Virus record (IMG/VR): IMGVR_UViG_3300037722_000745
Span: 224,001 to 288,000 of that record
Length of the DNA stretch: 64,000 nt
Source of the DNA: a virus
Taxonomy: Duplodnaviria > Caudoviricetes
Reading direction: 5' to 3' (one strand)
Shown: in pieces, positions 26,189-31,081 of the stretch
Numbering within the stretch: position 1 is the first letter of the stretch
Layout of the letters: every line of letters starts with the position of its first letter
Program-made: the position numbers and the translations under genes
The notes under the pieces: generated by a model
What the model saw: the letters and a program-made list of their open reading frames with translations, nothing else
Told to the model about the DNA's origin: nothing
Databases searched by the model: none

Positions 26189-26715
26189 TCGCCCTCCAAC
26201 ATCGCCGCCAACTCCAAACTGTCCCGAAACACGGGCTCACCTCCATCTGGAAGCTCCTCCAGAGTCGACAACAAAGCCCTCCACTGGCCTTTGGGTGGTT
26301 CGAAGGCTAAAAGCCCCTTCTCAACCACCCACCCTCGAATCTCGGGTAACGTAACCTTTGCCAAAAGATACGCAAGCTTCCTAAGATCGACAACATGCCC
26401 GAGCAAAACACCCTGATGTTCATAGTCAACATCACCAAGAGGAATCAACTTCGATGGTGCTTCCCCAGCCCACTCTTTCAAATCCTCAACCACGAACACC
26501 TTTGGCTCAGAAGGTGGACCCGTCAACAAGTCCTCCAGGCGCGATTTTGGGTACCCTTTCCCCTGCTTAGGACCCGCCGCCTTCACCCCAAACAGGATAT
26601 AGCTGTCTGTCGCCACTGACCACGTAATCCGTTCAATCTTAATAGAGAACGGGGCCGCGTGCCAAGGTTTGGACCCGGACGCAAATCGCATGAGCTGTGA
26701 GAGCAAAACACTCAT
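26185..26715 (-). CDS. hypothetical protein
   Basis: 176-aa ORF. Confidence 0.65.
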   Translation of the reverse strand: MSVLLSQLMRFASGSKPWHAAPFSIKIERITWSVATDSYILFGVKAAGPKQGKGYPKSRLEDLLTGPPSEPKVFVVEDLKEWAGEAPSKLIPLGDVDYEHQGVLLGHVVDLRKLAYLLAKVTLPEIRGWVVEKGLLAFEPPKGQWRALLSTLEELPDGGEPVFRDSLELAAMLEGE

Positions 26716-26953
26716 CTGGTTTCTGTACCTGATCCAGAATTCCTCTGGGAAGATCTACACCGGCATCTCACCAGACCCTGAAAAGAGGGTGCAAGTCCAC
26801 AACACCGGGAAAGGTGCCAAAGCAACTCGTGCCGGTCGACCATGGAGGTTGGTCTATACAGAGTGCTGCGGCTCCAAAGGTCAAGCGTTGCGACGAGAAC
26901 TAGCCGTCAAGAGGTTGTCTCGAGATCAGAAACTAGAACTGATCGAGACCTAA
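26690..26953 (+). CDS. GIY-YIG nuclease (UPF0213/SLX1-like)
   Basis: FLYLI...YTGIS.DPEKRVQVHNTGKGAK.T...RPWRLVY.E...ALRRE. Confidence 0.9.
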   Translation: MSCESKTLIWFLYLIQNSSGKIYTGISPDPEKRVQVHNTGKGAKATRAGRPWRLVYTECCGSKGQALRRELAVKRLSRDQKLELIET

Positions 26954-27624
26954 TCTGCCTGAGGAAGCTTCCCCACAAGCTCGCGAATACGCTCGGCCTC
27001 CTCAGCTTCCCGTAGCTTCGCCTTCAATTTAGTTGAACGCGCCAAGTGCGATGGCATTGGCTTGTCGGCTTCCATGCCCCATGCATCCCAACCAGGTGGA
27101 CACCCTCTAGCAAACAACTCAATGCGTGAGGTATCCCCAAAAAGCTCCTCAATACGCTCCCGAACCTCTGGCGGCTTGCTAGAGTGCCCCGGTGGTCGTG
27201 GGGCGAACACATACTGGCTCTGGCTCTCGGTCCTCAATGGCAGCGTGCGACCCCGCTTCTGTGTTGAGCCTATGAGCACGATCTCGCCTAGCTGTTTCAC
27301 AAAACTCGGCCGCACCCCCTGACCTTCGATGACCTTGCCGTCCTTCGTCGTCTTGATCCAGAAATAGGCGATACCGCGGTAGTAGAAGCCCCACTGCCGG
27401 ATGAGGTCGATCGCCTCTGCGAGCTTCGGCCCGGTCGCCCACATGAACAAGACTCCCTTACCATCGATGAGCTGGCGGACTGGCAAAGCTTCAAGTTCCT
27501 CGAAGGACATCATGTTGTAATGTTTGCCAGCCGCCTGGTCCTTATCCGGGTCGCCATAGTATTCCCATGGCACGTCAATGTGTATAACCCGATAGACCGA
27601 CGGGAGAGTATCTAAGGGCCTCAT
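26950..27624 (-). CDS. MT-A70-family adenine methyltransferase
   Basis: IHIDVPWEY, LFMWAT, WGF.Y, HSSKP.E, IELFAR..GWDAWG. Confidence 0.9.
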   Translation of the reverse strand: MRPLDTLPSVYRVIHIDVPWEYYGDPDKDQAAGKHYNMMSFEELEALPVRQLIDGKGVLFMWATGPKLAEAIDLIRQWGFYYRGIAYFWIKTTKDGKVIEGQGVRPSFVKQLGEIVLIGSTQKRGRTLPLRTESQSQYVFAPRPPGHSSKPPEVRERIEELFGDTSRIELFARGCPPGWDAWGMEADKPMPSHLARSTKLKAKLREAEEAERIRELVGKLPQAD

Positions 27625-27777: not shown

Positions 27778-27905
27778 CTACGACCTGCATGCAGGGCTGC
27801 GACGCAGGGTCGTCCCCGATCCGCAGTAGGGATCGAGCGTCACCCCACCGCGGGGCGTGACGAGTTTGACGAGCCGCTCCATCAGCGCCAACGGCTTCAT
27901 GGTCG
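27778..27905 (-). pseudogene. partial duplicate of the methyltransferase C-terminus
   Basis: PTMKPLALMERLVKLVTPRGGVTLDPYCGSGTT versus PTMKSLSLMEWLVKLVTPRGGTTLDPYCGTGTT. Confidence 0.8.
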
Positions 27906-27973
27906 GGACTCCCAACAAGGGCCCGCAGAAACGACCTTGTAGCGGCCCGCCAGCGTCACAAGGGAGGGCGGGT

Positions 27974-30900
27974 TCATTCCTCCGGGACCAGTTCTTCGAG
28001 ACGAGATGAGATGTCCGCGAGGTCGTCATCAAATGCTTTGTCTCCCGACTTCGTGCGGAGTGCCTTCAGGCGAGCTTCGGCCAGGGCATGGAAGTCTGGA
28101 TCCTTCTCGATTCCGACGTACTGACAGCCCGCCTGAATAGCCGCTACACAGGTTGTCCCTGTTCCGCAGTACGGATCGAGCGTTGTCCCACCTCGGGGCG
28201 TAACGAGCTTGACCAACCATTCCATGAGGGAGAGAGATTTCATCGTGGGGTGAGGGTTCTTCGCTCCCTTCATCCAACCTTCACGCTCTTGCTTGCTGAC
28301 CTTCGCTGTGTAGAAGAATGGAGCCTCAGGCTCGAACTGACCGAAGTAGCGTGAAGCCCCTCCTCCCTCACCCACTACCGATGATGGTTTTGACCCATCA
28401 GCAGTTGTGACTGCCCCGTGGTAGCCCATACCCTTTTGACATTCACCGGAGAACCATCCCGGGGCTCTAAAACCGCTCTGCTTGTCCAACGCCTTGACCG
28501 GACACCCCTCGACACACTCGTAGACGGGGATCTCCTCCATCCCATCAGCATCACCTTGCGGCTCTGACGTGTAAGAGTGTCCGGCCCCATCACCGAACGG
28601 CTTCATCCCGTCATCGAAGCGGTTGATGACGGGGGCCTTGACCCGCTTCGAACCTACGACCTCACACTCGGTCGAATGAATCATCAGAGTGTTAGCTGGC
28701 CAACGCCCATGATTGTGGACCTCCGTCTCCACACCCCCGACCATCCCCTTCACCATCGTGTTGCGAGCTTTGCCCGGCGAACTGCTGTTGGTCCGCGTCG
28801 TGTGGCCGATCCGCGTCGCATCGATATTCAGCCCGCCCGTACCGTGCTTCAGAACGTTCTGAGCAACAGTAGCCTCCGAAAGAGGCTTACGGAACACTAA
28901 TATCGGTTCCCACGAGGGTTTAAGAGCCGTGCCAAGGCCATCAAATTGTGAAGCGGCTTCGGAGTCCACCCCTGCCTTCAACACCGCTTTCTTCACATTT
29001 AAACTCTTGGGAAAACCAGAGTTACCTGTGATGAACACCCTACCATTGCGTCGAGCTACGAACGCCCCAGTCTCCACGCGAACACACCACACCTCCCCGT
29101 CATAGTCTTTCAGATGGGTCGCATGGAGATGTCTGGACTGTAATTCCGTAGTCCGATTGTCGTGCAACGAAACACAACGCTTCTTCGCGTTGTCCCGACC
29201 TTGCCACCCGATCATGTGGGCCAGGACCTGAAACCACTCACGGTCAACACCGTCTTTTTGGTAGAATTGCTTCTGGCCTACAGATCCATCCCCGTCCATA
29301 GCTGCGGATAGAAACGCCCTCTTCTCATCAAGGGTCATCCGCCACAACAGGTCGTAAGTTGGATGTTTGCCGGGCAAGATCTCTCGAACACTCAGAGCCG
29401 GTTCGCCCGAGAAGAACCACGTGTATTCTGTGTACTCCCGGCCCTTGTATGTGCGTACCCTCTCGTACTTTTTGAAGTCGGGAGCGAACTTCTGAGTCAA
29501 CCGATCAATCTCAACCACATGGTCGGGATTGACACTGCTCTGGTAAATGCGAACACCCGTCCAGGAGTTATCGAATCCGCCCTCAGTCCAGATCCACGCC
29601 AAGAAAGCAGCGTAGTCTTCCCCGCCAATCCCCGCCCCATCGTGGTACCCAGCCAATGGTAGCTTGATTGCTTGCCACCGATTGATCTCAGCAGCCTCCA
29701 TCGGAACCCACTCTTCCTCGAACCACTTGCGACGGGTTTTTGCTACCTGTCTACGGATAGCGTGTCGCTTGAATACGCGATGGTTAGGGGTCAGTAGCTG
29801 ATCGGTGTTGTCGTTACGAAAGCACACCATCGACCCCTGGTAAGGGGCTCGGAACACTTCTAAGACAGGACGTAATCCAATCCCCTCTGTGGCCGGGTCC
29901 CACGTGGCTACCGACAAACCTTCTTTGAGTTGGTCCGGTCCCACCCACCCGTGCTCAGTGAGAATCTCACTATCCTCACTGAGACACCCGTAAACCCACT
30001 GGAACACCTGGACGCTGAACTGCGCTGCTACGGTATCTCGACACTCAAAACCCGCGAATCGCAGTCCCATCGAGATTAAGTCGAACGTGCGGGTGGAGCC
30101 AAAGCTCAAGAGGTGCCCGCCGGGCTTGAGGGCGCGGTAGCATTCCCTCCATACGGCAACGGGCGGGATTTCCCAGGTATGACCCATAAAATCTTTATGT
30201 GTCTTGTGTGGTGAATGGAAACGATCCAACAGAACCCTTGGCACCGCAACGTTCAACGTAATTGCCCCGCCTGCGGGCAACCCTACCTTGCAAGTCAGAA
30301 AGCGCTTGAGAAGCGTCGTCAGACTACCTGCTCCAGACGCTGTTCCTATACACTCCGAGGAAGTCAGAAGAAGTCGAGCGTCGGCTTGGTCTGCGGGGTC
30401 TGCAAAAACGAGTTCACCAGAAACCCGAGCCACATCAAGGGTAAGCACGGCGCAAACTTCTGTAGCCCTATCTGTCACTATAAAGGGCGCTCCCTCGGGC
30501 TCTCCAAACGGATTGTGTACAAGCCGTACAACCATACGAAACAAGGCCGGGCCAACCGAAGTAAAGCAGCCGCACACCTCTACGCATCCGGTAAAGGTTT
30601 GGCTTTCCCGAAGACAGAACTGGCGGTCCTTGAGCGCCTCAAAACCCAAGGAATCAACGTTGTCCACCAGAAGGTTGTCGAACTTCCCGACAGGGCCTAT
30701 GCGGTTGACTTCTTTTTCCCCACTAGAGCCGACGGGGGTTTGATCATCGAATTGGATAACCCCGGACGACATGATCGGGGGTTGATGCACGCTGACTTTG
30801 AACGAGACAAGATCTTGAGCGAATTGGGGTTCGAGGTCGTCCGCTTGTGGGACAACGGACGACCGGAGAATGCTATTCGCGCAGTGCTGGACACCCTTCT

Positions 30901-31081
30901 TCAATGGCCCGAGAGACGGAGCGCCTCCAAGGTACCGGATGATGTCCTCTGCGGTAGGTTCTCTAGAAGATAGACCATACGGGGGGTCAGTGACGATCGA
31001 GTCAACGCTGGAGTCAGGGAGCGTCTTCAGGACTTCGAGGCAGTCGCCCAGGTGGACCTGGTTAGGTTTCAGAGCTGGCAT
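27974..31081 (-). CDS. N6A/N4C DNA methyltransferase carrying an intein and a second in-frame insertion
   Basis: DPPY at N-terminus, LDPYCGTGTT at C-terminus, LKPGG and YG-SGFPKS motifs. Confidence 0.9.
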   Translation of the reverse strand: MPALKPNQVHLGDCLEVLKTLPDSSVDSIVTDPPYGLSSREPTAEDIIRYLGGAPSLGPLKKGVQHCANSILRSSVVPQADDLEPQFAQDLVSFKVSVHQPPIMSSGVIQFDDQTPVGSSGEKEVNRIGPVGKFDNLLVDNVDSLGFEALKDRQFCLRESQTFTGCVEVCGCFTSVGPALFRMVVRLVHNPFGEPEGAPFIVTDRATEVCAVLTLDVARVSGELVFADPADQADARLLLTSSECIGTASGAGSLTTLLKRFLTCKVGLPAGGAITLNVAVPRVLLDRFHSPHKTHKDFMGHTWEIPPVAVWRECYRALKPGGHLLSFGSTRTFDLISMGLRFAGFECRDTVAAQFSVQVFQWVYGCLSEDSEILTEHGWVGPDQLKEGLSVATWDPATEGIGLRPVLEVFRAPYQGSMVCFRNDNTDQLLTPNHRVFKRHAIRRQVAKTRRKWFEEEWVPMEAAEINRWQAIKLPLAGYHDGAGIGGEDYAAFLAWIWTEGGFDNSWTGVRIYQSSVNPDHVVEIDRLTQKFAPDFKKYERVRTYKGREYTEYTWFFSGEPALSVREILPGKHPTYDLLWRMTLDEKRAFLSAAMDGDGSVGQKQFYQKDGVDREWFQVLAHMIGWQGRDNAKKRCVSLHDNRTTELQSRHLHATHLKDYDGEVWCVRVETGAFVARRNGRVFITGNSGFPKSLNVKKAVLKAGVDSEAASQFDGLGTALKPSWEPILVFRKPLSEATVAQNVLKHGTGGLNIDATRIGHTTRTNSSSPGKARNTMVKGMVGGVETEVHNHGRWPANTLMIHSTECEVVGSKRVKAPVINRFDDGMKPFGDGAGHSYTSEPQGDADGMEEIPVYECVEGCPVKALDKQSGFRAPGWFSGECQKGMGYHGAVTTADGSKPSSVVGEGGGASRYFGQFEPEAPFFYTAKVSKQEREGWMKGAKNPHPTMKSLSLMEWLVKLVTPRGGTTLDPYCGTGTTCVAAIQAGCQYVGIEKDPDFHALAEARLKALRTKSGDKAFDDDLADISSRLEELVPEE
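29021..29986 (-). mobile_element. intein (322 aa) with LAGLIDADG-type endonuclease
   Basis: YG|CLSEDSEILTEHGW ... VWCVRVETGAFVARRNGRVFITGN|S; internal AMDGDGS. Confidence 0.92.
30215..30973 (+). CDS. Zn-finger plus DUF559/Vsr-like endonuclease nested antisense inside the methyltransferase
   Basis: CPAC/CSRRC/CGVC/CSPIC fingers; YAVDFF..LIIELD...H...DFERDKILSELGFEVVRLW. Confidence 0.85.
   Translation: METIQQNPWHRNVQRNCPACGQPYLASQKALEKRRQTTCSRRCSYTLRGSQKKSSVGLVCGVCKNEFTRNPSHIKGKHGANFCSPICHYKGRSLGLSKRIVYKPYNHTKQGRANRSKAAAHLYASGKGLAFPKTELAVLERLKTQGINVVHQKVVELPDRAYAVDFFFPTRADGGLIIELDNPGRHDRGLMHADFERDKILSELGFEVVRLWDNGRPENAIRAVLDTLLQWPERRSASKVPDDVLCGRFSRR

Follow-up and report, generated by a model that had tools for sequence, protein, structure and literature searches.

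Homing endonucleases that reside inside genes are thought to survive there on introns or inteins that splice out. Can such a nuclease also persist within a protein-coding frame from which nothing is spliced? This question is raised by a DNA methyltransferase (MTase; also methylase) gene of a tailed phage (Duplodnaviria; Caudoviricetes), which lies in the window, i.e., the whole stretch of 64,000 nucleotides (nt) analyzed here (G000 C1:224001-288000 of a 323-kb virus record). A first-pass annotation, made from the sequence alone, had described a zinc-finger/DUF559-type nuclease gene within the coding region of this methylase, on the opposite strand, with the methylase frame running through it without a stop. 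Based on the comparison of this locus with its relatives, we propose that the insert is most probably a non-splicing, read-through homing element, whose nuclease is nested at the same methylase site, antisense and in codon register, in at least 30 diverged lineages.

Anatomy of the interrupted methylase

The locus is made up of the following parts (window coordinates; ORF, open reading frame; aa, amino acids):

27974..31081, minus strand: whole methyltransferase ORF, 1035 aa plus stop, a beta-class N6/N4 DNA MTase
30917..31081, minus strand: native MTase N terminus, residues 1-55, with DPPYGL and the helix EPTAEDIIRYLGG
30194..30916, minus strand: read-through insert, residues 56-296 (241 codons), antisense of the nuclease cassette
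29987..30193, minus strand: MTase residues 297-365 (DFMGHTWEIPP...WVYG), between the insert and the intein
29024..29986, minus strand: LAGLIDADG intein, residues 366-686 (C366...N686, S687 at +1), homologous to the mycobacteriophage methylase intein
27977..29023, minus strand: MTase C-extein, residues 687-1035, with the target-recognition region and motifs X and I-III
30194..30214, plus strand: cassette leader of 21 nt, with an in-frame TGA just before the ATG, reading SPHKTHK in the MTase frame
30215..30973, plus strand: homing endonuclease gene, 252 aa, intact, with two CxxC...C zinc-finger modules and then a Vsr/DUF559-like nuclease domain

The 1035-aa ORF matches the N6_N4_Mtase profile (PF01555) in a Pfam scan, and its motif IV (DPPY, residues 32-35) is N-terminal with motif I (DPYCGTGTT) lying near the C terminus, an order which, along with the profile match, is that of the beta class. 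In tblastn searches against phage records it matched the methylase family of mycobacteriophages, many members of which bear an intein at the same place. Against the intein-bearing methylase gp101 of the Mycobacterium phage Lilac, residues 298-1006 align with 42% identity, intein included, and residues 6-37 match separately; the stretch between these, before residue 298, is unmatched. The intein, which the first pass had already read as a normal one downstream of the insert (C366...N686/S687), possesses Cys1, the terminal Asn, the +1 Ser, and homology to known inteins at the same site, and it matches LAGLIDADG_3 and TIGR01445 weakly. The genome's own methylase call is a 575-aa fragment (P0136) with its start inside the intein. 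Methylases on the contigs of relatives are likewise called as short pieces, such composite genes being missed by automated annotation.

The insert is situated in the loop after motif IV, where it stands in place of a 6-residue Gly/Asp loop (DLDQGG in P0018, an empty allele). Alignment with the insert-free close homologues P0018-P0022, a check suggested in the first pass, placed it at residues 56-296, with the junction defined at the protein level and the boundaries good to about 3 codons. The first-pass annotation had the insert start from DPPY and span roughly 30200-30930; the insert itself stands, but its boundaries are corrected to 30194-30916, as about 19 residues after DPPYGL, including the peptide EPTxEDIxxYLxG and the helix EPTAEDIIRYLGG, are also present in the insert-free homologues and hence belong to the native methylase. 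Both junctions are bridged by identical pieces among the contigs of four further soil and sediment DNA runs, and hence the insert is not an assembly artifact; no joints and no empty allele were found among the contigs of these four runs.

The product of the plus-strand ORF is a real, conserved, folded protein. Its DUF559 domain (PF04480) is detected by Pfam at 28.2 bits, above the cutoff of 20.6, and its two zinc-finger modules bear out the earlier assignment. Profile searches against the PDB recover 3hrl (E of 1.5e-4) and PvuRts1I, with the similarity to 3r3p being marginal (E of 0.59). The AlphaFold2 (AF2) model of the nuclease has a mean predicted local distance difference test score (pLDDT) of 87.7, and its top Foldseek matches are 3hrl, a DUF559 protein (template modeling score by target, 0.63), and 3r3p, the catalytic domain of I-Bth0305I (0.69), in both cases with a probability of 1.00 but weak E values (~0.01) and with these small targets well covered. 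In an alignment of 42 nuclease sequences the Cys pairs, D165, and E179 show no variation and H186 hardly any, and the ORF is intact in every nested copy. On the contigs of its metagenomic homologues, the nuclease lies antisense inside the same methylase. In tblastn searches of 50,697 phage records, the window nuclease and a GC-rich relative found no match, and a low-GC relative found distant nuclease domains only, with no cultured carrier. A scan of viral contigs with a single nuclease protein as the query returned nothing, an alignment query being required, and a scan of genome contigs returned metagenome-assembled genomes only, again with no cultured carrier.

Stop codons in nested and free-standing copies

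The codons of the 1035-aa and 252-aa ORFs share the same triplets on opposite strands, i.e., the two frames are in exact codon register, as had been recognized in the first pass. In this arrangement a stop in the register antisense frame can arise only from a TTA, CTA, or TCA codon of the nuclease, and across the nuclease gene that frame has 0 stops, against 10 and 11 in the other two antisense frames. The first-pass annotation had itself cautioned that antisense frames in register stay open more often in GC-rich genes, and the frame could accordingly be open by luck of composition, with the methylase dead and interrupted. The register antisense frame is indeed the least stop-prone one. In the window's genome the three codons together constitute 2.06% of all codons, the probability of finding none in 252 codons is 0.005, and they are absent from about 1% (1.2%) of sliding 252-codon windows and from 1 of 172 ORFs of ≥200 aa. 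The within-genome case against chance is thus only moderate, and it is the relatives that are decisive.

Scans of metagenome, viral, and genome collections with the nuclease alignment yielded more than 100 loci. At all loci with the nuclease situated between the DPPY and FMGxxW motifs of a methylase, the register frame is free of stops, while the other antisense frames contain 3-27. Three such loci are the following (stops in the register frame and in each of the other two antisense frames):

L101, GC 0.37: 0, 27, and 8
L041, GC 0.42: 0, 23, and 7
L033, GC 0.48: 0, 26, and 8

Across 30 nested lineages of <70% identity, with GC contents of 0.37-0.72, TTA, CTA, and TCA account for 0 of 7101 nuclease codons, against 152 expected from each lineage's own methylase codon usage. 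Since carriers at GC 0.37-0.49 are included among these lineages, the caution regarding GC-rich genes is answered. Further, the non-nested relatives do carry the three codons, and the exteins of the interrupted methylases keep all their motifs and show change dominated by third positions. Taking these findings together, we consider an open frame by mere luck to be extremely improbable.

The copies outside the methylase speak to the nature of the constraint. Nested status was rechecked on all remaining loci with an insert-free methylase as the query, independently of the open frame, and no stop-carrying locus was found to interrupt a methylase. The non-nested copies carry 1-11 TTA, CTA, or TCA codons, and most of them are positioned just upstream of a methylase and divergent from it (L106, L063, L070, L048, L075, L064, and L057). 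In a maximum-likelihood tree the free copies lie within the nested diversity: L012 is sister to L100 (support, 99/95), L059, L106, and L070 fall inside nested clades, and the path lengths exceed 1 change per site. The three codons are hence excluded only while the element interrupts the gene, which points to continuing selection rather than to a codon habit of the nuclease or a one-time filter on arrival. Under such a filter, an ancestral cassette would have been stop-free by luck and under no selection afterwards, and the nested copies may indeed all descend from one insertion. However, their identities fall to 28% over paths of the above length without any nested copy having acquired a stop, whereas sister copies outside the gene have gained 1-11; we accord an arrival filter next to no probability. 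As judged from these alignments, continuing selection keeps the methylase frame free of stops at every locus where the gene is interrupted by the element. The search for stops in the antisense-derived segment of relatives, which the first pass had proposed, found none at any nested locus.

Some of the non-nested loci have unusual architectures. In L012 (4989-5966, plus strand; protein P0011), the nuclease relative forms a sense fusion with the C-terminal ~70 residues of a methylase, which include motif I (LDPFAGSGST), and a separate, complete PF01555 gene lies 3 kb downstream. In L026 (148-1313), L110 (2288-3921), and L106 (2366-2937), a duplicated methylase N-terminal fragment flanks the nuclease, and downstream follows a methylase that is either intact or re-started. 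The break in the methylases of L110 and L106 falls precisely on the target site (DPPYG/E stop, then MGKKWD). Loci of this kind suggest how nested copies could have become free-standing ones upstream of the gene. The upstream relatives, having left the methylase and acquired stops since, constitute a natural experiment on dual-strand coding.

Mobility and the fate of the passenger peptide

Evidence for movement comes from an empty allele. The post-insert part of the methylase of L008, a relative with 67-70% identity that lacks the intein, was used as a query and retrieved P0018, a 539-aa insert-free methylase, 98-99% identical to that of L008, on a contig with the same neighboring genes as L008. 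The two proteins are identical at 436 of 443 residues after the insert and at 39 of 49 before it, with residues 56-294 of L008 occupying the place of DLDQGG. The differences are clustered at the flanks, with 7 in the 17 residues just upstream of the insert and 4 in the 14 just downstream, as against 3 in the next 429, a pattern that would be expected of homing with co-conversion of short flanking tracts. Thus, the presence or absence of the element among near-identical methylase alleles, with flanks resembling co-conversion tracts, shows it, at the level of allele comparison, to be mobile.

How, then, might the methylase accommodate the insert? The cassette consists of the 21-nt leader and the ORF, with the ancestral ORF stop at the other edge of the insert, and only those 21 nt fall outside the ORF. 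Homing endonucleases commonly ride in introns, and the insert could be removed at the RNA level as an unrecognized intron or be skipped by the ribosome through a programmed translational bypass. However, neither route requires an open frame, and the purge of stops would hence go unexplained; an Rfam scan for group I/II introns gave no match at E≤1, and the 21 nt are all that an intron would have outside the nuclease ORF. We therefore regard removal or skipping of this kind as decidedly unlikely. An alternative is removal by protein splicing, with the insert as a non-canonical intein bearing an antisense Vsr-like endonuclease. Inteins that harbor antisense Vsr-like and LAGLIDADG endonucleases with an open host frame have been described (bioRxiv 10.1101/2025.01.02.630785), and the first residue of the insert is Ser. 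Nevertheless, the downstream junction reads ...THK/DFMG (K296/D297), and in other lineages ...RGG/FMG, with neither a terminal Asn or His-Asn nor a Cys, Ser, or Thr at +1; a Hint domain could not be accommodated outside the nuclease ORF; the insert is matched by none of the intein models, whereas the real intein obtains its weak TIGR01445 match; and the insert has no confident AF2 fold. Protein splicing of the insert is hence very unlikely, and the first-pass statement that it has no spare intron sequence and no intein motifs holds. As an open frame is needed by neither an intron, a bypass, nor a split gene, read-through is the simplest account.

The pattern of substitution reveals the frame on which selection acts in the insert. 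When the window is compared with its relatives, methylase positions 1/2/3 show 0.46/0.13/0.28 differences per codon in the insert and about 0.3/0.2/0.6 in the exteins. Methylase position 1 corresponds to nuclease position 3, which is thus the fastest-changing one in the insert, and hence the nuclease is the protein under purifying selection there. The passenger peptide, i.e., the methylase-frame reading of the insert, differs at 46-62% of its residues among the window and its relatives and probably evolves as a by-product of selection on the nuclease; it has no Pfam, PHROG, or NCBIfam match. In the AF2 model of the whole methylase its pLDDT is mostly <50, with values of 80-98 for the methylase core. 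The conservation of the exteins in insert carriers fits a working enzyme. One could also imagine that it is not methylase function that keeps the frame open but, for instance, a need for translation to prevent polarity or mRNA decay for the downstream genes, with the enzyme itself crippled. The methylase is likely dispensable, the published family being patchy in its distribution (PMC11855218), and a second methylase is encoded downstream. On the other hand, the exteins of carriers are under purifying selection with all motifs intact, and the frame, being in phase, yields a single full-length protein regardless, both of which make this reading unlikely.

In light of these observations, we propose that a minimal cassette, comprising the 21-nt leader and the zinc-finger/Vsr-like homing endonuclease gene, would have homed into a surface loop of the methyltransferase just after motif IV, in the orientation opposite to the methylase and in exact codon register. 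TTA, CTA, and TCA all have synonyms, and the methylase frame could thus be held open without cost to the nuclease protein; with three codons to avoid, placement in the register antisense frame would be the cheapest form of overprinting. Ribosomes would then read the methylase straight through the insert, and the LAGLIDADG intein would splice out, leaving a methylase with a passenger loop of ~241 residues that is likely still functional. The nuclease, expressed from the opposite strand, would cut empty alleles at the loop-coding site, and repair would copy the cassette in. The selfish, antiparallel, nested nuclease tolerated as a read-through passenger that was envisaged in the first pass is supported by at least 30 stop-free lineages, by the stops of escaped relatives, by the third-position changes of the nuclease, and by the empty allele. 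It is conceivable, with a small probability, that the passenger peptide is not inert, undergoing a post-translational removal or rearrangement that does not involve a Hint domain, or that the antisense cassette is a regulatory module with a promoter firing against the methylase, coupling methylase output to nuclease expression; the comparative evidence shows only the need for an open frame.

Several points weigh against the read-through homing element as proposed. First, the codon at 30914-30916 is AGA in the window and TGA in L008 and L016, a change that is synonymous (Ser) in the methylase frame; with the ancestral stop lost, the nuclease ORF runs on to 30973, extending 19 codons (30917-30973) into native MTase codons, and the activity of the window copy is hence uncertain. 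Second, no plus-strand promoter was called ahead of the window nuclease in a sigma-70 scan, the match in the leader being poor, and no RNA run is listed as containing the locus. Third, a 241-residue loop beside the catalytic DPPY loop might impair the enzyme, and the AF2 evidence regarding the passenger is weak, the alignment being shallow and even the genuine intein reaching only 35-90. Fourth, in L046 (2914-3804; GC 0.41) the register frame is stop-free across the nuclease, yet the methylase flanks appear broken, with a stop soon after YFMENEWD; this methylase may be a decaying host gene. Finally, the lineages probably share one ancestral insertion and would not be fully independent, the length of the paths between them notwithstanding.

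In the leaders of many distant nested cassettes (L028, L029, L032, L035, L037, L051, L089, L112, L113, and others), an extended -10 promoter (TGnTATAAT) is present in near-perfect form immediately 3' of the complement of the FMG codons; its methylase-frame reading is Ile-Ile-Pro/Ala. These cassettes may hence bring their own promoter. The leader of the window appears to be a degenerate counterpart of this promoter, and in the window's clade, with its shorter 21-nt leader, a leaderless mRNA may be used.

The neighborhood of the methylase contains further genes of related function. Just downstream, at 26950-27624 on the minus strand, is an MT-A70 methylase (PF05063; E of 4e-25), unrelated to the PF01555 methylase; the same gene order after the methylase is also found on the contig of the empty allele P0018. 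Between this gene and a 176-aa ORF, at 26669-26953 on the plus strand and thus opposite to its neighbors, lies a 94-aa GIY-YIG ORF (PF01541; E of 5.6e-18), which is likely another free-standing homing-type nuclease near the methylase. Directly past the methylase stop, an 84-aa ORF (27778-28032, minus strand) repeats the C-terminal motif region PTMKPLALM...DPYCGSGTT (PF01555; E of 6e-11) and looks like the relic of an earlier allele left by within-gene recombination.

Relationship to known insertions of homing endonucleases

The closest parallel is the ShiLan domain of mycobacteriophage methylases, a stop-free insertion that hides an out-of-frame HNH gene on the same strand and that has been inferred to be non-splicing (Gosselin et al. 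2023, PMC9957025; Arsenault et al. 2025, PMC11855218). The likeness extends to the host, as the window protein can be aligned with the methylases of Lilac and of the ShiLan type, with which it also shares the intein. In both systems the insertion has no stops in the host frame, bears no intron or intein features, and is nearly coextensive with a single endonuclease ORF, the stop of which lies at the edge of the insert; both also show a patchy, homing-like distribution and a passenger peptide that is looped out with low confidence. In contrast, the window nuclease is on the opposite strand, in register, and Vsr/DUF559-like, whereas that of ShiLan is HNH and occupies frame 3 of the same strand. 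The site also differs, being the loop after motif IV, as do the hosts, which are uncultured huge phages and many other environmental phages. Hence, the window element is a variant of the ShiLan-type insertion and, in the absence of a same-strand HNH gene, not a strict member.

Both types of insertion occur together in L006 (1023-4239) and L007 (152-3368; minus strand), GC-rich actinophage-like relatives with a 1072-aa methylase frame open across three elements, namely, an antisense Vsr-like gene and two ShiLan-like, same-strand, out-of-frame HNH_3 genes (1246-1593 and 1919-2515 in L006).

Antisense cases are not mentioned in PMC11855218, and we found no description of an antisense non-splicing insertion in the literature searched. 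Antisense endonucleases of the LAGLIDADG and Vsr-like types are, however, known from inteins, which splice out, through work of the group that described ShiLan (bioRxiv 10.1101/2025.01.02.630785), which cites Gorbalenya 1998 and Gogarten 2002 for such arrangements. These share with the window an endonuclease, in some cases Vsr-like, that is antisense in a host frame that stays open; they differ in that their passenger is spliced out within the intein, whereas the window insert possesses neither splicing blocks nor the junction residues. As for the nuclease itself, its catalytic domain matches that of I-Bth0305I in fold, its PF04480 match is above the threshold, and acidic residues are conserved in its alignment, all in keeping with the Vsr-like (DUF559) homing endonucleases. 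The PDB entry of I-Bth0305I names a mobile intron protein, whereas the window nuclease has a double zinc-finger N-terminal region and no intron. Parallels are also offered by free-standing phage homing endonucleases, such as the HNH genes that precede the methylase genes of Tiff81 and Sashimi (PMC11855218); relatives of the window nuclease are likewise found just upstream of a methylase, but the window copy interrupts the gene instead.

The practical consequences are twofold: gene callers split or truncate such methylases, and these loci provide a clean system for determining how much foreign peptide an enzyme loop tolerates. In terms of known systems, the window element combines a ShiLan-like non-splicing insertion with an antisense Vsr-like nuclease, at a new site. 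If the above proposal is correct, this would represent, at scale, a third route by which homing endonucleases reside in genes, one with no splicing whatever, in which the nuclease is reversed in the sole frame where readability of the host gene comes free and selection acts against three codons throughout the element's stay in the gene.

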